Virus record (IMG/VR): IMGVR_UViG_3300025195_000001
Origin: a virus
Length of the DNA: 43,628 nucleotides
Direction: 5' to 3' (one strand)
The notes under the pieces are model-generated. The model was not told where the DNA came from, made no database searches, and was given only the letters and a program-made list of their open reading frames with translations. The first letter of the stretch is position 1; each line of letters begins with the position of its first letter. Of this stretch, positions 1 to 42,961 are shown in pieces. A program made the position numbers and the translations under genes.

Positions 1-127
1 GTAATGCCTTGTTTTCAGTTTTGATCTGAAAGATATAAGCGATAGATCCGATCAATCCAAAAATCAAAACAAGTGCGAAAATTGATGTTTTGTCTATTTT
101 CATATCTAACTATTTTCTGTTATCCCA
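1..127. repeat. Terminal direct repeat copy 1, identical to 43502..43628. This contig-end overlap implies a circular or terminally redundant 43,501-bp unit.
   Basis: The two ends were compared base by base and are identical over 127 bp. The minus-strand ORF 43245..43604 lies partly inside the repeat. Confidence 0.95.
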
Positions 128-502
128 ACGCGCTCTGGTTCCACGAATATCATAATGAACAAATGTGTTATATATGCCGACACCGCCTTGCTTCATTTCT
201 CCTTTTGAAATTAGGTTGTAAATTATTAAAGCTATTTCTGCAGATGAATAACCTTCGATTCTAATGTCTGCAGCTTGCCCAAAAATATGTCTGCTATCTT
301 TCACGCCACCTACTTTTGCATTATGAGTTGGTGATCTATAACCACTATTAATATGAATTGGCTTACCAATATGATCACGTAAGACTTGAAGGTTATCAGC
401 AAGTTCTAAGATATTCTCAAATACATTCTTTGGCATCTTTGATCCGTCGTGAGAATCAAACTCTTTAATATTAAAGTTCTCTGTTATTTTCATATTCTTC
501 AT
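110..502 (-). CDS. Endolysin, peptidase M15 family (zinc D-Ala-D-Ala carboxypeptidase-like cell-wall peptidase)
   Basis: 130 aa carrying SGYRSPTHN, SRHIFGQAADI and VHYD, the H/D/H zinc-ligand pattern of M15 peptidases. It overlaps the upstream holin-like gene. Confidence 0.8.
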   Translation of the reverse strand: MKNMKITENFNIKEFDSHDGSKMPKNVFENILELADNLQVLRDHIGKPIHINSGYRSPTHNAKVGGVKDSRHIFGQAADIRIEGYSSAEIALIIYNLISKGEMKQGGVGIYNTFVHYDIRGTRARWDNRK

Positions 503-18231: not shown

Positions 18232-18423
18232 GTTATACTTATTCGTTCTAAGTAATATTTTTTGCCTTTGCGCTCAATATGATTTCTTACTCAAACTCTT
18301 AGCGAACGCCCGCAGTACTTGTGTTTAGCTTATGCAACCCTCATCAATGCGGGTTGGTTAATCTCGAAGTTGGCTAACGCCATTTGCAAACGCTTTCAAA
18401 AATACTACAAAGAACTACATATA
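18232..18423. repeat. Intergenic cassette B (mosaic family)
   Basis: It starts with gttatacttattcgttctaagt (19 nt shared with E) and carries gcctttgcgc. It holds a 31-nt hairpin block at 18332..18362 that is also found at 42134..42164, and the hairpin tggc-taac-gcca at 18371..18382. On the minus strand it has TTTG-N22-TATTTTTG, with the -7 box at 18397..18404. Confidence 0.65.
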
Positions 18424-18475: not shown

Positions 18476-18787
18476 TTATTCAAGTTCTTTAGGTATTTCA
18501 GGAGTTGTTTTGTATTCCCACCATTCAGAACCGTCATATTCTCCTCTTTCAATCCAAGATCCGTCCACAAACCACAATGTGCCAAAAAGTTCTTGACCAC
18601 CATATCCACTATCGTAGTTAAAATCTAAACTATTTATAAATCTATCGAGATCTTCTTTGCTGTGGTTACATTTCAGAAGATAGCTAGTTCTATCATCATC
18701 CCAATCATCGCCTTTATATATTTCGGCACATTTTACTTTTGGGTTATTTTTCAATTGATCTAATAATTCAATCTTTGCATTTGTCAT
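18476..18787 (-). CDS. Hypothetical protein (Trp/Asp/Gly-rich)
   Basis: 103-aa ORF with the C-terminal block YDSGYGGQELFGTLWFVDGSWIERGEYDGSEWWEY. The family was not identified. Confidence 0.5.
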   Translation of the reverse strand: MTNAKIELLDQLKNNPKVKCAEIYKGDDWDDDRTSYLLKCNHSKEDLDRFINSLDFNYDSGYGGQELFGTLWFVDGSWIERGEYDGSEWWEYKTTPEIPKELE

Positions 18788-29300: not shown

Positions 29301-29571
29301 TGGTAAGGTTTTTAGCTTTATCGAATAATGAATTTCGCGCTTGGCTTTGGCGAGTTTTACGCTCTACCAATTCTGAGATAAATGCCCAGATTCCTTTTTC
29401 TACTTTCTCGTGTCGAACTTTACCGTGAAATACATTTGAGATAAATGGCTGAGAAAACGGGTTTTTCCATTGGTTTAAATAACCATGCTCAGTGAGATAA
29501 TTTCTAATCTTGGTAATATGCTGTGCACCAATTAGATCGATATACACTTTTTTTTGCTCCTCCGACATCAT
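29281..29571 (-). CDS. First early-leftward gene (Cro-position protein)
   Basis: 96 aa, divergent from the cI-like gene across a 149-bp operator region. The functional analogy to Cro is positional only. Confidence 0.45.
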   Translation of the reverse strand: MMSEEQKKVYIDLIGAQHITKIRNYLTEHGYLNQWKNPFSQPFISNVFHGKVRHEKVEKGIWAFISELVERKTRQSQARNSLFDKAKNLTNVQEAS

Positions 29572-29642
29572 AGTATTCTGCTATTGCTCAAACAAATACA
29601 ATATTATATATTTGCTAGTAGTTAATTAATTGCTTGTTAAGG

Positions 29643-29650
29643 CAAATATA
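29643..29650 (-). promoter_or_regulatory. -7 box TATATTTG of the early-leftward promoter
   Basis: A perfect TAnnTTTG on the minus strand (plus-strand caaatata). The operator palindrome lies immediately upstream of it. Confidence 0.5.
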
Positions 29651-29657
29651 AAACAAT

Positions 29658-29676
29658 GTTGCAGAATATTGCAAGT
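29658..29676. promoter_or_regulatory. Operator-like palindrome, copy 1 (TTGCA-N6-TGCAA)
   Basis: gttgcagaatattgcaagt. Further TTGCAA half-sites occur at 29681..29686 and 29704..29709. Confidence 0.6.
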
Positions 29677-29720
29677 AAAATTGCAAAAAACTGCTATAAA
29701 TATTTGCAATATTTTGCTTT

Positions 29721-30149
29721 ATGCTGAAAATCAAAGAGATAAGAGAGAATAAGAATATATCACAAGATAAGCTTGTTGAACTTACTGGAATTCCTAAACG
29801 AACCTACGTAAATTACGAAAATGGGAAATCCGATATACCATTCTCAAAGTTGCAGAATATTGCAAGTGCTTTGAATGTAAGAGTACAGGATTTTATTGAG
29901 GAGAAAAAAGTGGATAAAGTAAATGAAACTCCTCCACCTTATGAAGATGAAGTAAATCTCTTGAGTTTAAAAAAAGACCTTAAAACAATTTATCAAGGTT
30001 TGACCACTAATTTTAATACCATTAGTGAAGGTGTGTTTCACGTTCTGCAGGACACACAAGAAATAAAAAGATTTATTGGTGAGCTAGACCCCAAAGCCAT
30101 TAATAATGCAAGTGAAGGATTGAATAAATTTTTAGAAGAACATAAATAA
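29721..30149 (+). CDS. XRE-family HTH repressor (cI-like), without a peptidase S24 domain
   Basis: 142 aa. The N-terminus KEIRENKNISQDKLVELTGIPKRTYVNYENGKSDIPFSKLQNIASAL is a classic XRE HTH. The C-terminal 80 aa lack a Ser/Lys autoprotease pattern. Confidence 0.8.
   Translation: MLKIKEIRENKNISQDKLVELTGIPKRTYVNYENGKSDIPFSKLQNIASALNVRVQDFIEEKKVDKVNETPPPYEDEVNLLSLKKDLKTIYQGLTTNFNTISEGVFHVLQDTQEIKRFIGELDPKAINNASEGLNKFLEEHK
29849..29867. promoter_or_regulatory. Operator-like palindrome, copy 2, inside the repressor coding sequence
   Basis: An exact 19-bp copy of 29658..29676. It encodes KLQNIAS of the HTH recognition region. Confidence 0.5.
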
Positions 30150-31948: not shown

Positions 31949-32003
31949 CTTAAAATCCAATGAACATTAGTTCGTACGGGTTCAAGTCCCGTCCCGAGTA
32001 CCA
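31949..32003 (+). other. attP core: 3' portion of a tRNA-Leu(UAA)-like gene, from the anticodon loop to CCA
   Basis: It contains the anticodon loop cttaaaa, tccaa, a long variable arm gaac-atta-gttc, the T arm acggg-ttcaagt-cccgt, the acceptor 3' strand cccgagt, a discriminator a and cca. The 5' half is absent: the upstream cagaa cannot pair with tccaa. Confidence 0.75.
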
Positions 32004-32007
32004 AGCG

Positions 32008-32034
32008 CAAAACCCCTGTTTTTACAGGGGTTTT
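32008..32034 (+). terminator. Terminator hairpin following the tRNA fragment
   Basis: aaaacccctg-ttttta-caggggtttt. Confidence 0.7.
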
Positions 32035-32092
32035 CGTGTTTTTAGCCTCGACTTTTTCAATATGAAAAAAGACGAGAACACAACAAATGAGC

Positions 32093-32109
32093 ATAGAAAC
32101 GGCCATAGA
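32093..32109 (+). promoter_or_regulatory. Candidate integrase arm-type site (P' arm)
   Basis: atagaaacggccataga, a direct repeat of 31850..31866 on the other side of the core. Confidence 0.5.
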
Positions 32110-32124
32110 TTTTTTGAGTTTTCT

Positions 32125-33354
32125 ATGAATAAAAAACGCTATTCTAATCCGAAAATTTATATTCCTCGTAAGAATGGAAGGCCGTCGGTAAGTGCAAAAA
32201 GTAGATGGCACGTTTATTTTTATTGGCGAACCGAAAAAGATGGTCCGCTAGATAAATTATTTACCTTTAGAAAAGACATCAACCGATTAAAAACTCCTGC
32301 AGAAAGAAATGCTGCAGCAAAGTCTCTTCAATCAGCCTTACAAGTTGCGCTTGATCGTGGTTGGAATCCGTTAACCAATACGACCATCGATGAAAGGAAT
32401 TCTCGCGATTCGATGTTATTGAAAGAAGCACTCGAATTTTCTTATAAAATATTAGAACGCACCAAATCGACTGCTACGCTAAACGGTTATAATTTTCATC
32501 TGAACAAATTTTTAGAGTGGGCAAAGATTAACGGTTATATTGGGATGGACGTGCGAAAATTTGGAGTAGATGAGTTTTACCAATTTTTCGATTACTTAAG
32601 GTTTGAATATGTAAACCCGAAAACCGGAGACAGTTTAAGCGGTACTTCTATCAATAACACCAAACGATCGCTTTCATCTTTATTCGGGACCTTAAAGAAA
32701 GAACGCATCATCGCTGAAAACTTTGTAAAAGACATTCCGAAGGTTGACCAGGAACCTGTCAACAATAAAGCGTTTACTTTAAAGGAACTGGAGCAGATCA
32801 AAAAAGCGGTACTTAAAGAAGATCCTTACCTGATCCATATCATTCGGTTTATGATGTACCCATTACTTCGCGTTAGAGAAATTTGCCGTTTGCAAGTGAA
32901 AGATATTGATGCCGAACTTTCGATGTTGAAGGTAAAAACCAAAACCGAAGTTTTGAGTTACCGCAGGATCATTAAAAAGCTTGAACCTTCTATTAAAGAA
33001 CTTAAGCTTGAAAATGAACCGCCAAATTTTCATGTTTTCACGAATCTAGATCAACCCAAAGATTGGAGCGATGCGACTTTAAAAAGTAGAACCGATCATT
33101 TTGGGAAACGCTTTAAGAAGATTAAAGACAAACTTGGCTTCGGGCGAGAATATGGATTGTATTCTTTTCGGCATACCGCAATATTAGACCTTTACAATTC
33201 TAAAGTTGATGCAGGATTGCCGGAGCAACAAATACTATTTGAGTTAATGCCCATCACCGGGCATAAATCTGTCGCCGGGATTAAAAATTATTTGCGCCAT
33301 CATAAAAAATCGATCCCTGCAGATCATTCAGATATTTATACGATTGATATTTAA
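32125..33354 (+). CDS. int: Tyrosine recombinase / phage integrase
   Basis: It carries LLRVREICRLQVKDI (Arg I region), YSFRHTAI (HxxR) and GHKSVAGIKNYL (catalytic Tyr). The track ORF starts at 31960 inside the tRNA fragment. The plausible starts are the ATG at 32125 (MNKKRYSN, after the P' arm repeat) or the ATG at 32062. Confidence 0.9.
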   Translation: MNKKRYSNPKIYIPRKNGRPSVSAKSRWHVYFYWRTEKDGPLDKLFTFRKDINRLKTPAERNAAAKSLQSALQVALDRGWNPLTNTTIDERNSRDSMLLKEALEFSYKILERTKSTATLNGYNFHLNKFLEWAKINGYIGMDVRKFGVDEFYQFFDYLRFEYVNPKTGDSLSGTSINNTKRSLSSLFGTLKKERIIAENFVKDIPKVDQEPVNNKAFTLKELEQIKKAVLKEDPYLIHIIRFMMYPLLRVREICRLQVKDIDAELSMLKVKTKTEVLSYRRIIKKLEPSIKELKLENEPPNFHVFTNLDQPKDWSDATLKSRTDHFGKRFKKIKDKLGFGREYGLYSFRHTAILDLYNSKVDAGLPEQQILFELMPITGHKSVAGIKNYLRHHKKSIPADHSDIYTIDI

Positions 33355-37147: not shown

Positions 37148-39937
37148 TTACTTTATTTGAGTGCTTTCTTTTAATTTGTCGAGTTTCTTTTGTTGCTCCT
37201 GGCGTTTGAGTTCTTCTTCGGGACCAAAGTAAATTGGAGCTTCAAGCGGTTGATCTAGTTTTTGCATAAACGCTTGCATCATATCCATCATCATTTGGTT
37301 TGAAGAACTTGAGGCAGAACCAGATCCCGAACTTGAGTATTCGTTTGCCGTGTCGCCACCTGTAGCATATAGACCGAGTTTCTTTTTACGTTTGGTTTCC
37401 AGATAATCTAAAATCTGAGGAACTTCGGGGTCGCGTCTTACAATCTCCGGTACTACATATTCATTGGTATGTACCACTCCCGCCACTTCGTGACCAGACC
37501 CATCTTTATAACCCTGCCCGAATAGATCGGTATAACCACCACCACTAAAGCCTTGTATGGTTGCAGCACCAATTGATGCTAATTGAGTAGCAGCTGTAAT
37601 TTTGGTAGCTAAAATATTCTTTGCGGTTGTAGCAGCAGCAATAGCATACATAGGGTTTGGTAATATAGTTCCAGGTATAGCAATTGGAACTGTCGCTAAA
37701 TTAGCTTTTGCCGCTGCAATACCTTTTGCTGCTGAAGTTATTACTTCGCCGGCTGCTAGACCTTTTTCTAAAAGAAATAAGGCGTGATATATTCCGCTAG
37801 ATTCATCAAAGAAGCCTTGTAATGAATTAATACCGCTTGCCAAGGCATTGCTTTTGGCTGCTTGCAAGTTTTCTTCCGCTGCAATTAATTCATCATAAAA
37901 CTTTTTATTTTCTTTTGCACGCTCCTCGTTATATTTAGATTCAATATCTAAAAGCCGTTGTTTATGGTTTTGCTCCATTAACTCCAAAAGCTCTTCTTTT
38001 TCGGCTTTTGTGAGTTGCATTTGTTCTAATGCAGCTTCTTCTTTTTCTAAACGTTGCTCTTCTTCGAGCTCTTCCTTTTCCTGATCGGTTTCAGCTTTCG
38101 CTAATTCAAGTTCGTTTAAAAGTTCACGTTTGCGCTCTTCGAATGCTTGTAAGCGTTCAAGTTCTTTTTCTTCTTCTTCCTTTTTAGCTTCGTCGATTTT
38201 AATTTTGTATTCATCACGAATAGCTTGTCTTAATTCTTCACCGGCTCGAAGTGCTTCCGCTTTATCGAGTTCGCGTTGCATTTCTAGCTCTAGTTCTTTT
38301 ACTCTAGAATTTGCTAATCGATCTTCTTTTTTACGGAGGTATTCTTCTTCTAAAGCTGCAATAGCATCAAGTCTTTTCTTTTCTGCTTCTAGGGCTTTTT
38401 GATCTACTTCTAAATTATTGGGATTATTTTTTTGGGCTTGCTTCTCTTTTTCCTTTTGGCGTTTTTGTTCTTCTTCTTTTTGTTTTGCAGCAGCTTCTTC
38501 AATTTTACGTTGTTGTTCGTCAAATTCTTTACCGAGTGCTTCCCAGTCTGCATCTGCGCCAATGGTAAATGCATCTTTTACATATTGAACCGATTGAAAT
38601 ACAAATCGTCTAAATGCGGTATCTGCATCGACTAAACCTTCTGCGATCGCATTTATAAACTGATAAAAATCTGCTTTTGCTTTTATCCAGGTAACTTCTA
38701 ATTCATTTACAAAAGCATTATAACTGTCAGATTTTAAGGCATCATTTTGGGCTTCTTCTAATTCTCGATTTGCATCTGCAACATCTTTTAAATGTTGTTG
38801 TAATGGAGTAAGCGCATCGGCTTGATCCTTTAGTGCATCGTTAACGGCTTCAAAAATTACCAATGCACCACCGGCATCTTCTCCTGCACCTCTAAAAAGG
38901 TCGGCAGTAAGTTGTTGCGCTTGTTGTGAGTTTAAACCAATATTTTCTGCTTCTGTAGCAACTAAACCCAATGCATCTTTTACCGTAATAGATCCTGACT
39001 TTAAATCTTTGAAAAGTTTATCTGTAAATTGTTTACCGAAGGCATTTTCAAGTGCTTCTCGAGAAGCTGTAGTTTCTTCCATTACAGAAAGCGAAAACTC
39101 TTTAATTGCATCGGGAAGTTTATCGCTGTAAATACCTAAGTCGATACCTTCATTTACGATACGTTGAAAATCTTCGACCGTAAACCCTGCTTGTGCAAAA
39201 AGACGAGGATATTCTTTTAAGCTGTCTAAAAACTCACCATTCTGCGAACCACCTCGAACTAAGCCATCTTCAATACGATCAAAAGCTTCTTCGTAGGTAA
39301 TGCCAAAAGCATTCACCAGATTTTTAGCAACGTTAAGCGTTTCTTTAAAATCGGTACCAAATGTATTTTCTATTGCAGTAGCTCTAATGCGAGCTTCGTC
39401 TAATGTATCACCACTTAGTTGAGTAATTTGTTGAGTTATTGCATTTGCTTCACGTGCAGCTTCATTGTATTTAACCCATTCTTTCGCAGCAAGCACAATA
39501 CCGGTTAAACCAACCATTATTAAACCGAATGGAGTTTTTGCAAATTGCCAAGCTGCATTTGCAGCAGATTTAATACCTCCGGCTACACCGTGCATACCCT
39601 CACGAAAACCGACTAAATCGCCACTTTTAAGTGCAGAAAACATTTGGCTTACGTTACCGCCAAACTCATTAAGCGTGGCGTTATGGTCTTCTTGAGCTGC
39701 AATATTTTTTTTAGTATCGTTTAGAAGTTCACGCTGATTTTTTTTCATATCATCGTAAATCTTCTCGGTTTTGGCGAGTTCTTTATTGGCTCGGTGCCAT
39801 TCTTCGGTACCTTCGGTTAAATTTTTGGTACGCGCACGTAGTGATCGCAGTTCTTTACCAACGCCGTTAAGTGTATTTTTTACTTCTTTACCATTAATTT
39901 TGATAAGAAGGTTGAATTGTGTATCTCTAATTGCCAT
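37148..39937 (-). CDS. Tail tape measure protein
   Basis: 929 aa with a long Glu/Lys/Ala-rich coiled-coil centre and hydrophobic Gly/Ala-rich segments (AATTAKNILATKITAATQLASIGAATIQG). It is the largest ORF and lies upstream of the distal tail genes. Confidence 0.85.
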   Translation of the reverse strand: MAIRDTQFNLLIKINGKEVKNTLNGVGKELRSLRARTKNLTEGTEEWHRANKELAKTEKIYDDMKKNQRELLNDTKKNIAAQEDHNATLNEFGGNVSQMFSALKSGDLVGFREGMHGVAGGIKSAANAAWQFAKTPFGLIMVGLTGIVLAAKEWVKYNEAAREANAITQQITQLSGDTLDEARIRATAIENTFGTDFKETLNVAKNLVNAFGITYEEAFDRIEDGLVRGGSQNGEFLDSLKEYPRLFAQAGFTVEDFQRIVNEGIDLGIYSDKLPDAIKEFSLSVMEETTASREALENAFGKQFTDKLFKDLKSGSITVKDALGLVATEAENIGLNSQQAQQLTADLFRGAGEDAGGALVIFEAVNDALKDQADALTPLQQHLKDVADANRELEEAQNDALKSDSYNAFVNELEVTWIKAKADFYQFINAIAEGLVDADTAFRRFVFQSVQYVKDAFTIGADADWEALGKEFDEQQRKIEEAAAKQKEEEQKRQKEKEKQAQKNNPNNLEVDQKALEAEKKRLDAIAALEEEYLRKKEDRLANSRVKELELEMQRELDKAEALRAGEELRQAIRDEYKIKIDEAKKEEEEKELERLQAFEERKRELLNELELAKAETDQEKEELEEEQRLEKEEAALEQMQLTKAEKEELLELMEQNHKQRLLDIESKYNEERAKENKKFYDELIAAEENLQAAKSNALASGINSLQGFFDESSGIYHALFLLEKGLAAGEVITSAAKGIAAAKANLATVPIAIPGTILPNPMYAIAAATTAKNILATKITAATQLASIGAATIQGFSGGGYTDLFGQGYKDGSGHEVAGVVHTNEYVVPEIVRRDPEVPQILDYLETKRKKKLGLYATGGDTANEYSSSGSGSASSSSNQMMMDMMQAFMQKLDQPLEAPIYFGPEEELKRQEQQKKLDKLKESTQIK

Positions 39938-41932: not shown

Positions 41933-42031
41933 ATGAGTAAAGACAAATGGACTTGTGAAGAAATACAAATTGCAACTTCGGTGTTGCTTGCTATAATAAT
42001 AGGAATTTTTATGTTGTATCATTTTACATGA
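41933..42031 (+). CDS. Putative 32-aa hydrophobic peptide
   Basis: Own translation: MSKDKWTCEEIQIATSVLLAIIIGIFMLYHFT. Its stop overlaps the next ATG (ATGA). Confidence 0.25.
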   Translation: MSKDKWTCEEIQIATSVLLAIIIGIFMLYHFT

Positions 42032-42132
42032 AGAAACCCACTTTCGTAAATAAAGACACTCAAGCGCTAAAAGAAACACTTCAAAAATTAGGAAAGCCAC
42101 TAATTAAAGAAGCGCTCAAAGGTCGTGATTAA
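42028..42132 (+). CDS. Putative 34-aa basic peptide
   Basis: Own translation: MKKPTFVNKDTQALKETLQKLGKPLIKEALKGRD. It ends 4 nt before a perfect hairpin that has a plus-strand T-rich tail. Confidence 0.25.
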   Translation: MKKPTFVNKDTQALKETLQKLGKPLIKEALKGRD

Positions 42133-42136
42133 GATG

Positions 42137-42158
42137 CAACCCGCATCGATGCGGGTTG
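42137..42158. terminator. Perfect 22-nt palindrome hairpin between convergent units
   Basis: caacccgcatcgatgcgggttg. On the plus strand it is followed by gttaattttt. The 31-nt block 42134..42164 recurs with 2 mismatches at 18332..18362. Confidence 0.65.
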
Positions 42159-42159
42159 G

Positions 42160-42465
42160 TTAATTTTTAGGCAAGTTATTTGGTCGCCTACCAAGCTCAG
42201 TCATTGCTTTTTCAAATAACTGGTTAAGATCTGTTTCAGAATTTCTACTTTCAAAAAAGATATTCAATTCCAAAGCGTGAACTATTTTTAGAATTACATC
42301 AAATTTTAACGGAAAATCTAAATCGAAAAATCTCTTTAAAGTCGAGCGATGCACACCTATTTTCTCAGCTAATTGTGAGCTGTTCATTTCTTTTTCTTTC
42401 ATTGCTTCTTGAAAGAAAAGAGCGAACACTTTCCAATGTTCGCTCGGTTGATTTTTGTTATTCAT
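42160..42465 (-). CDS. XRE-type HTH protein
   Basis: The HTH reads MNSSQLAEKIGVHRSTLKRFF. The ATG at 42465 (MNNKNQ) lies 1 nt after the upstream stop, and the longer track ORF (to 42531) overlaps that gene. Confidence 0.65.
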   Translation of the reverse strand: MNNKNQPSEHWKVFALFFQEAMKEKEMNSSQLAEKIGVHRSTLKRFFDLDFPLKFDVILKIVHALELNIFFESRNSETDLNQLFEKAMTELGRRPNNLPKN

Positions 42466-42466
42466 A

Positions 42467-42814
42467 TTATAAAGTATAATCGTTATCAGCTCCCCATTCT
42501 GCTGTATATTCCTCATTCCAAGATTTAGCAACTTCTAAGATTCTTTGTAAGTTATTTCTAAAACCTAAAAACTCGCCTCCAGTTACTCTTCTGTTACTTG
42601 TAACGCCGTGATCGCTTATTCTAACTTTCATCACTTCAGCAAAATCCTTATCTAAGAATTTAAAATAAAAGGTTTCGCCATTTGAATAACAAGAAGATGT
42701 TATAAAGTTGTGAATGTTATTTTCTTTTAAAATTTCAATAAAATCTAAAGCTTCTTTTTTAGTTTGAGTTGCTTTTTCTTTTAATCCCGAGTAATCTACT
42801 TTTTGAAATTTCAT
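42467..42814 (-). CDS. Hypothetical 115-aa protein, co-transcribed with the HTH gene
   Basis: The ORF is preceded by its own promoter-like motifs. No motif recognised in the protein. Confidence 0.55.
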   Translation of the reverse strand: MKFQKVDYSGLKEKATQTKKEALDFIEILKENNIHNFITSSCYSNGETFYFKFLDKDFAEVMKVRISDHGVTSNRRVTGGEFLGFRNNLQRILEVAKSWNEEYTAEWGADNDYTL

Positions 42815-42873
42815 AATGCTTTGCCGTATTGTGCTGTTGCCGCCAGCGTTTAAATTAGTAATTGTTTCTGTTA

Positions 42874-42906
42874 CAAATATAATACTTTGTTGCGTTCCTG
42901 CAACAA
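42874..42906 (-). promoter_or_regulatory. Promoter with an overlapping palindrome for the 115-aa/HTH pair
   Basis: The minus strand reads TTGTTGC-aggaac-GCAACAA (42906..42887), then 5 nt, then a perfect TATATTTG (42881..42874). The TTG-N19-TAnnTTTG spacing fits the Bacteroidetes consensus. Confidence 0.55.
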
Positions 42907-42961
42907 TTAAAATGTTAAAGTTTTAATTTTAAACAAAAAAATAGTGTCGAATTCGAAACCT

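Follow-up and report, generated by a model that had tools for sequence, protein, structure and literature searches.

A presumed self-repressing cassette with an exchangeable accessory gene in a marine Flavobacteria phage

Introduction

A marine Flavobacteria phage (IMG/VR record IMGVR_UViG_3300025195_000001) carries two small genes between its lysis and tail genes. What kind of unit do they form? In the initial annotation, a gene for a 115-aa protein of unknown function and a gene for an XRE-type HTH protein were described as a cassette with its own promoter, an operator palindrome and a terminal hairpin. The cassette was read as an acr-aca-like or HigBA-like toxin–antitoxin unit, and horizontal insertion was suggested. 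The locus was therefore re-examined within the window, i.e. the whole stretch of 43 628 nucleotides, and compared with related loci. Comparative data all came from metagenome contigs. The contigs cited most often are L022 (a sister phage), L026 (a contig unrelated outside the shared frame), and L014 and L021 (more distant loci with related HTH genes).

Results

Every feature described in the initial annotation was found in the sequence at the stated coordinates. Two further elements, a conserved leader and a terminator-like hairpin inside the HTH gene, had been missed. The features are as follows.

42934..42960 (–): weak terminator-like hairpin (GGTTTCGAATTCGACAC) plus T-run, inferred to close the upstream lysis genes
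42809..42926 (–): left part of the conserved frame (promoter, operator, leader and first two codons)
42887..42906 (no strand): operator candidate, palindrome TTGTTGC-N6-GCAACAA covering the –33 TTG (42901..42903)
42874..42881 (–): Bacteroidota-type –7 promoter box TATATTTG, with TTG 19 nt upstream
42822..42847 (–): 26-nt 5′ leader motif GCTGGCGGCAACAGCACAATACGGCA, ending 7 nt before the cargo ATG
42467..42814 (–): cargo gene, 115-aa protein of an undescribed 'RISDH' domain family
42410..42445 (–): terminator-like hairpin (GAGCGAACA-N8-TGTTCGCTC) plus TTTTCTTTC, inside codons 8–19 of the HTH gene
42160..42465 (–): XRE-type HTH regulator, 101 aa, presumed autorepressor
42133..42163 (no strand): 31-nt block holding the perfect 22-nt palindrome (42137..42158), a bidirectional terminator-like hairpin

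The two ORFs are on the same strand and are separated by 1 nt. Homologues of the HTH protein begin at the same MNNKNQ N-terminus, and ATG 42465 was therefore retained as the real start rather than the longer 118/123-aa calls. The protein is of the XRE/Cro type (HTH_26 at E 2.5e-6, above the Pfam cut-off, and HTH_3 at E 1e-4). Upstream are the endolysin (110..502, adjacent across the join of the circular genome), a 119-aa membrane protein and a 111-aa lipoprotein-like protein. Downstream are three unknown genes and the tape-measure gene. The hairpin at 42934..42960 corresponds to an inverted repeat, and L022 has GTGTC-N6-GACAC plus a T-run at the same place.

The promoter is one of only two full TTG-N17-21-TATATTTG sites on the coding (–) strand of the window. 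The other is at the divergent control region near 29.6 kb. The palindrome over the –33 region is unique in the window. A 7-bp-arm repeat alone is not beyond chance, as 21 inverted repeats occur in 1.2 kb. However, the palindrome is conserved with a different spacer in L022 and is identical in L026. Equivalent palindromes sit at the same place in about 20 related loci, always abutting the –7 box, and co-vary with the HTH recognition helix across six specificity classes. This is sequence evidence only. A scan of IMG/VR with the promoter-plus-operator pattern gave no hit, and a search of 50 697 deposited phage records with the region found nothing.

The perfect 22-nt palindrome at the end of the cassette has a folding energy of –15 kcal/mol. 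Its T-run is better on the + strand and poor on the coding strand, so it acts as a bidirectional terminator at best. As the initial annotation had noted, the surrounding block recurs elsewhere in the genome (18331..18361, 29/31 identity). It is absent from L022 and is not part of the frame shared with L026.

Comparison of loci showed a conserved frame (promoter, operator, leader and HTH gene) around an exchangeable cargo gene. The HTH protein is 95% identical in L026, 74% in L022, 68% in L021 and 38% in L014. Between the window and L022, the flanks are 83–89% identical (89% for 42809..42926), but the cargo of L022 is an unrelated 65-aa protein at the same position. Between the window and L026, only 42926..42809 (97.5% identical) and 42462..42160 are shared, and the cargo of L026 is a 119-aa acidic protein. 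In both, homology on the left side stops at 42809, just inside the cargo ORF. Between the window and L014, only the cargo gene is shared, at 78%. Across 25 loci, the first genes fall into 21 unrelated BLASTP clusters. Six of their products have a pI below 5 and four carry a net charge of –19 to –25. Three cargo families occur with both HTH subfamilies (A and B). The HTH family has at least 123 clusters, including Tenacibaculum and Flavobacteriales genomes.

No match to the 115-aa protein (pI 5.7) was found in Pfam, PHROGs, NCBIfam or PADLOC. Other cargos gave no match either (10 scanned against Pfam and PHROGs, and a partly different set of 10 against PADLOC). The 115-aa protein has 22 relatives in 5.8 billion clusters and 6 real ones among 1.84 billion representatives. 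Hit P0007 (1160 aa, nine stretches) was dropped as a low-complexity repeat hit, and P0006 is a chimeric scaffold. Invariant residues of the family are G46, Y50, R65, S67, D68, H69, V71 and R76. The AlphaFold model (pLDDT 72–73) has a predicted alpha-beta3-loop-alpha topology. Two models were searched three times with Foldseek against PDB and BFVD, and no match reached E below 0.01. The best hits were at E 0.2–0.3 with TM below 0.45. The recurring weak resemblance to T7 gp1.2, Acb4 and HigB2 is not significant and was not used. A PDB sequence search with the family profile gave only noise and weak HipB matches. With the HTH protein, the same search returned no match at E up to 1 other than HipB (E 0.1); from the literature, this database should hold Aca1, Aca2 and Aca10. 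Neither the HTH nor any cargo could be tied by these searches to a known Aca or Acr family.

Two observations link the locus to anti-restriction. One cargo behind the same leader matches the ArdC N-terminal domain (ArdcN), but exactly at its Pfam cut-off. The RISDH domain also occurs inside a 709-aa multidomain protein whose N-terminus matches a DarB-like antirestriction PHROG, but that match covers a different part of the protein.

The leader is unique in the window. It is identical in L021, L026 and 12 IMG/VR contigs, apart from one substitution in contig L058, and has a 1-nt insertion in L022. The flanks are otherwise unrelated, with a G+C content of 0.29–0.48, and the leader is essentially invariant in at least 10 otherwise unrelated phage promoter contexts. 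It always ends 7–9 nt before an ATG and lies 13–31 nt after a –7 box (TATATTTG or TATCTTTG in 12 viral contigs). A second leader anchor returned the same 12 contigs, so no diverged copies were found. No Rfam match was obtained at E up to 10. Searches of deposited phage records gave only chance hits, PLSDB plasmids gave nothing and the searched literature held no description of it. The leader folds weakly, no better than shuffled sequences, which led to rejection of a structured RNA. An Aca2-style RNA copy of the operator was also rejected, because loci with different operators share the same leader. No resemblance to rRNA, ops or CRISPR repeats is claimed.

The hairpin inside the HTH gene has an energy of –17.2 kcal/mol (z = –5.35), matched by 0 of 200 shuffles, and was flagged by the terminator scan. 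A hairpin centred on the same Trp codon and followed by a U-rich tract is present in all eight HTH genes of subfamily A, with different arm sequences. Five of 11 pairs show compensatory changes. A terminator also separates cargo and HTH in five subfamily-B loci, including a Tenacibaculum singaporense prophage. In Rfam, only a sub-threshold chance match to STnc240 was obtained (26.7 bits against a gathering score of 55).

Discussion

The interpretation given in the initial annotation was partly supported: comparison strongly supports the acr-aca-like architecture, including its horizontal mobility, whereas the toxin–antitoxin alternative was not supported. The explanation preferred here, with no more than moderate confidence, is a horizontally exchanged, self-repressing accessory-gene cassette of the acr-aca type. 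In this view, host RNA polymerase would fire the consensus Bacteroidota promoter as soon as the phage DNA is available. The leader, which sits where a ribosome-binding element would sit, would promote expression of the cargo gene. Most transcripts would stop at the hairpin and U-tract in the first codons of the HTH gene, and only read-through transcripts would yield the HTH protein. This protein, as a dimer, would bind the palindrome over –33 and shut the promoter. As the operator is unique in the genome, the HTH would be a local regulator. The cargo slot would hold interchangeable small proteins, in this phage most likely an early counter-defence or host-takeover factor. The anatomy, the cargo exchange, the co-variation of operator and helix, and the conservation of leader and hairpin are shown by the sequences themselves. 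Operator binding and repression by the HTH, attenuation at the hairpin, the role of the leader and any inhibition of CRISPR-Cas or other defences by the cargo are inferences. No cargo, including the 115-aa protein, resembles any characterized anti-defence protein in sequence or fold in the searches made.

A prophage-expressed moron is the likeliest rival, although unlikely. The cargo would be a lysogenic-conversion, superinfection-exclusion or small defence protein whose level is set by the HTH. The phage is temperate, with an integrase at 31960..33354, and the cassette has its own host-type promoter and terminators. In several phages it lies after the lysis genes, a classic moron position, and cargo variability also fits prophage defence hotspots. 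However, the cargos are single small soluble proteins, several strongly acidic, and those scanned have no PADLOC match. A tightly self-repressed strong promoter with an attenuator before the repressor would suit a burst on entry better than steady expression in a lysogen. The same leader also heads early replication-type operons (SNF2 helicase, PAPS reductase).

An antirepressor module like P22 immI, with a cargo that inactivates a prophage repressor and an HTH that keeps it off, is less likely still. The immI region also lies within the late region, between lysis and tail genes, and antirepressors are small, diverse and tightly repressed. In L014 and in another related locus, L020, the cassette abuts the lysogeny and early control region or the integrase. 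However, a 95%-identical HTH frame carries unrelated cargos in genomes with different backbones. The RISDH domain also occurs in the polyvalent, DarB-like protein and in arrays of small genes in other phage contigs. No similarity to known Ant families was found in Pfam or PHROGs.

A toxin-first HigBA-like pair is very unlikely. Gene order, sizes and layout fit, the HTH has weak sub-threshold similarity to HipB, HigA and other addiction-module antidote models, and very distant HTH relatives sit behind Gp49/HigB-like toxins (loci L033, L034, L042, L044 and L045). However, a nearly identical HTH next to unrelated, often strongly acidic proteins argues against specific protein–protein neutralization and a cognate, co-evolving pair. 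No toxin family was hit in Pfam, NCBIfam or PADLOC and no RelE/HigB fold was found (HigB2 structures at E 0.36–1.0, TM 0.24–0.29). In L005 and L007, two contigs carrying the 115-aa gene, a terminator follows it directly rather than an overlapping antitoxin; the next ORF, of which only 44 residues are visible, is not recognizably the HTH. Equally unlikely is a regulator of the late genes with a structural or assembly accessory: the cassette lies just upstream of the tail genes here and in L022, and directly upstream of a tape-measure-like gene in contig L052, but the operator occurs once in the genome, the first gene is not conserved even in the sister phage, and the frame occurs in L026 without tail or lysis neighbours.

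A more speculative and doubtful possibility is that the leader is a previously unrecognized cis-acting element used by Bacteroidota phages to launch their first-expressed operons. It could be a Shine–Dalgarno-independent ribosome-recruiting or mRNA-protecting signal matched to a conserved host component, or an ops/nut-like site that lets RNA polymerase read through the internal terminator. It would then mark a large reservoir of unexplored early and counter-defence genes, with at least 20 ORFan families here. A leader that stays essentially identical across otherwise unrelated phages, at a fixed distance from the start codon, is unusual in a phylum whose mRNAs largely lack Shine–Dalgarno sequences, and could expose how these phages secure early expression.

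Few anti-defence genes or Aca-type regulators are characterized for marine Flavobacteriia and their phages. The HTH family, with its operator, leader and frame, gives a guilt-by-association handle that already points to about 20 unrelated candidate families, including the RISDH domain. The related cassette in the prophage of the cultured strain T. singaporense makes experiments feasible.

Comparison with known systems

HigBA-type modules likewise have a small first gene followed closely by an XRE-type HTH, with a palindrome at the promoter. Here, the first gene is interchangeable next to the same HTH. Phage morons and the P22 immI region are likewise autonomous promoter-to-terminator units inserted between late-gene blocks of a temperate phage, next to the lysis genes. 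The present unit has a dedicated downstream HTH, presumed to be an autoregulator, and its frame is conserved across unrelated phages while the payload changes. With polyvalent (DarB-like) proteins of phages and conjugative elements the locus shares the RISDH domain, which here is a stand-alone protein. Its subfamily has lost the second conserved His of the family motif (E-x-H becomes E-F-L).

In acr-aca operons with Aca1/Aca2-type autorepressors, a strong promoter with an inverted-repeat operator is followed by one or more small variable ORFan genes and then a short HTH gene on the same strand, on phages and prophages. Free recombination between aca and acr genes and repression at promoter inverted repeats are documented for them (PMC9765179, PMC6765145, PMC13551039). 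The present locus fulfils the short-gene-operon criteria of AcaFinder, i.e. same strand, gaps under 250 bp, proteins under 200 aa and an HTH protein under 150 aa (PMC9765179). Its inverted repeat overlaps the promoter, and its regulator family is found with many different small upstream genes on mobile elements. It differs in its marine Flavobacteriia hosts with a –33/–7 promoter, and in the conserved terminator-like hairpin inside the regulator's coding sequence, which suggests a way of setting the cargo-to-repressor ratio that differs from the RNA-binding mechanism described for Aca1 and Aca2. The leader is a weakly structured 26-mer shared by loci with different operators, whereas the Aca1 and Aca2 RNA motifs are inverted-repeat hairpins (PMC13551039).

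Genome and genomic context

The window was found to be a complete, circularly permuted genome of about 43.6 kb, belonging to a temperate tailed phage. The 115-aa protein is on record on contigs of 43.5-43.6 kb that begin at different points and come from marine and other metagenomes, including Tara, JGI and ENA assemblies. It is listed for 27 contigs and in 43 index blocks. The genome itself is recovered almost unchanged as permuted contigs of about 43.5 kb (L001-L004) from metagenomes of several projects (JGI and ENA assemblies), so this uncultured phage looks widespread. The following features lie outside the cassette.

110..502 (-), M15-type endolysin
29571..29721, divergent pair of full-consensus promoters, TATATTTG at 29607 (+) and 29650 (-), each with TTG at N20-21
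31960..33354, integrase
37148..39937 (-), tape-measure protein
41933..42132 (+), two overlapping mini-ORFs

On the minus strand the gene order is: endolysin, 119-aa membrane protein, 111-aa lipoprotein-like protein, the cassette, three unknown genes and tape measure. Promoters follow the Bacteroidota TTG / TAnnTTTG pattern. Relatives of the HTH gene occur in Tenacibaculum and other Flavobacteriales genomes. The host is therefore very probably a marine member of the Flavobacteriaceae. The divergent promoters at 29571..29721 lie between a 96-aa and a 142-aa ORF and are probably the lysis-lysogeny switch. The two mini-ORFs at 41933..42132 overlap (ATGA) and converge on the terminator of the cassette. 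One encodes 32 aa with a single transmembrane helix and the other a basic peptide of 34 aa. The 32-aa peptide is identical in the sister phage L022, where the 34-aa one is truncated. The 34-aa ORF was also called by a metagenome gene caller.

Anatomy of the cassette

The observation made in the initial annotation was confirmed. Both ORFs, their 1-nt spacing, the -7 box with TTG at N19, the palindrome with 7-bp arms and the perfect 22-nt palindrome were all found where it had placed them. The second protein is an XRE/Cro-type HTH protein. The promoter is one of only two full-consensus sites on the coding strand. The palindrome alone is not statistically remarkable and its significance comes from comparison with related loci. 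The 31-nt block around the terminal hairpin recurs at 18331..18361 with 29 of 31 positions identical. This second copy, in which the hairpin is imperfect, lies downstream of a 103-aa ORF (18476..18787).

The 115-aa protein

Searches of Pfam, PHROGs, NCBIfam and PADLOC with the 115-aa protein returned no match. The protein is rare: it has five close homologues at 74-82% identity and about 16 distant relatives in 5.8 billion clusters, and an exhaustive HMMER pass over 1.84 billion representatives found six real matches. The family shares the motif K-[IV]-R-[IV]-S-D-H-[SG]-V...R...E-x-H, with G46, Y50, R65, S67, D68, H69, V71 and R76 as invariant residues. The second His has been lost in the subfamily of the window. 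Distant members occur as small stand-alone proteins in arrays of small genes of unknown function on other phage contigs, as a 143-aa member overlapping an HTH gene (locus L028), and as one domain inside a 709-aa protein whose N-terminus matches a DarB-like antirestriction PHROG. A 199-aa protein on the Tara scaffold L006 (P0006) fuses a PNPOx-like N-terminus to the C-terminal half of the 115-aa protein. The scaffold diverges again inside the HTH gene, and it is almost certainly an assembly chimera. AlphaFold gave a moderately confident alpha-beta3-loop-alpha model (pLDDT 72-73), in which the motif sits at the end of strand 3 and is followed by a low-confidence loop. No significant relative was found with Foldseek in PDB or BFVD.

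A conserved frame with an exchangeable cargo gene

The exchange was defined by four comparisons. The sister phage L022 has the same neighbours on both sides of the cassette. Homology runs to window position 42809, six bases into the ORF, and resumes at 42470, and an unrelated 65-aa gene lies between these points. The 46-kb contig L026 has a different backbone and shares only 42926..42809 (97%: promoter, operator, leader) and 42462..42160 (94%: HTH). Its cargo is a 119-aa protein with a net charge of -20. Locus L021 keeps the leader and a 68%-identical HTH around a 146-aa acidic protein. Conversely, L014, a different phage, shares only the cargo gene, at 78% nucleotide identity. Its promoter, operator and HTH differ (the HTH is 38% identical), and the pair again follows the lysis genes.

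Twenty-five first genes located downstream of these HTH frames or of the leader were collected and were found to fall into 21 BLASTP clusters. Six of the products have a pI below 5. Three cargo families occur with both HTH subfamilies. Among them, a recurrent acidic family (L026, L021 and locus L017) of 109-146 aa, with a net charge of about -20 and the motif (L/S)PSG(Y/H)GH(Y/W), is a good second candidate for a functional study. None of the cargos scanned matched Pfam or PHROGs (one set of ten) or PADLOC (a partly different set of ten). The HTH family is far larger than any cargo family, with at least 123 clusters. Very distant HTH relatives (about 40% identity over 50 aa; loci L033, L034, L042, L044 and L045) overlap Gp49/HigB-like toxin genes by 14 nt. 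By eye these look like toxin-antitoxin pairs, in a different HTH clade.

Co-variation of the operator and the recognition helix

The palindromes found at the promoters were compared with the recognition helices of the adjacent HTH proteins, and the two were found to change together. Every one of these palindromes abuts the -7 box. The operator of the window has no second copy in the genome. This is the signature of a local autorepressor, binding being inferred from sequence alone.

Recognition helices and promoter palindromes of the loci compared (recognition helix; palindrome at the promoter; loci, with L numbers denoting the related loci compared with the window)
HRST(L/I)(K/N)RFF; TTGTTGC-N6-GCAACAA; window, L022, L026
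HSSTIKRFF; TTTGCGTACACGCAAA; L056
MQSAVSRFF; ATAACACAAATGTTAT; L052
(Q/M)RSNV(S/N)R; GTATCA-N4-TGATAC; L057, and an imperfect version in L060
NESTLIRNF; ACTTGCA-N4-TGCAAGT; seven or more loci with different cargos
GVTTLIRYF; TTTTCATATATGAAAA; L017

A conserved terminator-like hairpin between cargo and regulator

A perfect 9-bp GC-rich stem starts 20 nt into the HTH ORF, extends to 11 pairs with G-U pairs and is followed by TTTTCTTTC. Its energy is -17.2 kcal/mol, with z = -5.35. All eight HTH genes of this 101-107-aa subfamily carry a hairpin centred on the same Trp codon and followed by a U-rich tract. The arm sequences differ, and so do the amino acids that they encode (SEH..VFA against NEQ..LLV). 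RNAalifold found 11 pairs, five of them with compensatory double changes. In the 88-aa subfamily, five loci have a classic intrinsic terminator in the cargo-HTH spacer. One of them (L061) is a prophage of the cultured strain Tenacibaculum singaporense (GCA_003937815.1, RSFU01000001.1, about 531-545 kb), which shares the DUF6712 structural module. Its cassette is arranged in the order operator ATTTGCATATATGCAAAT, 66-aa cargo, intrinsic terminator, HTH and terminator, and offers an experimental handle. A leaky terminator keeping regulator output low relative to cargo is inferred. Terminators or attenuation are not mentioned in the papers on acr-aca operons that were read.

An invariant leader

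The 26-mer GCTGGCGGCAACAGCACAATACGGCA lies at 42847..42822. It is identical in L021 and L026 and carries a 1-nt insertion in L022. A scan of IMG/VR with an exact 19-mer returned 12 contigs, which all carry the full motif, with one terminal substitution in L058. Their G+C ranges from 0.29 to 0.48 and their flanks are otherwise unrelated. The motif always lies 13-31 nt after a -7 box that is preceded by a different palindrome, and it always ends 7-9 nt before an ATG, often ATGAAAAC.

Three kinds of operon follow the leader. In the first, a variable first gene is followed by the same HTH subfamily. In the second (IMG/VR contigs L050, L053, L054 and L058), a variable ORFan is followed by an operon with a conserved 107-aa protein, an SNF2-type helicase and a PAPS-reductase-like protein. 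There is no adjacent HTH in these contigs, but GTATCA-N4-TGATAC-type palindromes lie at the promoter. In the third (IMG/VR contigs L049, L051 and L055), the leader heads an operon of an ArdC-N-like protein (Pfam hit exactly at the cut-off), a SymE/AbrB-like 64-aa protein, a 47-aa protein and a different HTH, a 76-aa HTH_3 protein.

The motif was not found in Rfam 15, in 50 697 deposited phage records or in PLSDB plasmids, and no searchable paper was found to print it. It is only weakly structured and is unrelated to the operators. Its fixed distance to the start codon, against a variable distance to the promoter, suggests a role in translation initiation or mRNA fate. Alternatively, it may act as a recombination boundary for cargo exchange.

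Interpretation and comparison with known systems

The anatomy of the cassette, the exchange of its cargo, the co-variation of operator and recognition helix, and the conservation of the hairpin and of the leader were established by sequence comparison, whereas repression by the HTH protein, leaky termination, the role of the leader and the function of the cargo are inferred. For the cargo, an anti-defence or host-takeover role is the best-supported inference, based on the architecture, the acidic ORFan cargos and the links to ArdC-N-like and DarB-like proteins. An anti-CRISPR activity specifically is only one option among several. A prophage-expressed moron or an antirepressor module remains possible. 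A toxin-antitoxin pair is effectively excluded, since the same HTH accompanies unrelated, often acidic, proteins and the first gene has no toxin features.

The interpretation given in the initial annotation, which had proposed an acr-aca-like or a toxin-antitoxin-like cassette, was supported in part: the better-known, acr-aca-like reading is the right frame. The anatomy and evolutionary behaviour of the locus are those documented for acr-aca loci, namely a small variable gene upstream, a short HTH downstream, an inverted repeat at the promoter and free recombination between regulator and cargo (PMC9765179, PMC6765145, PMC13551039). Within this frame, the locus is regarded as a variant rather than as a member of a named family. 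It uses a new HTH family in marine Flavobacteriia phages and a new cargo domain, and it has two unreported cis elements, of which the invariant leader is the more surprising.
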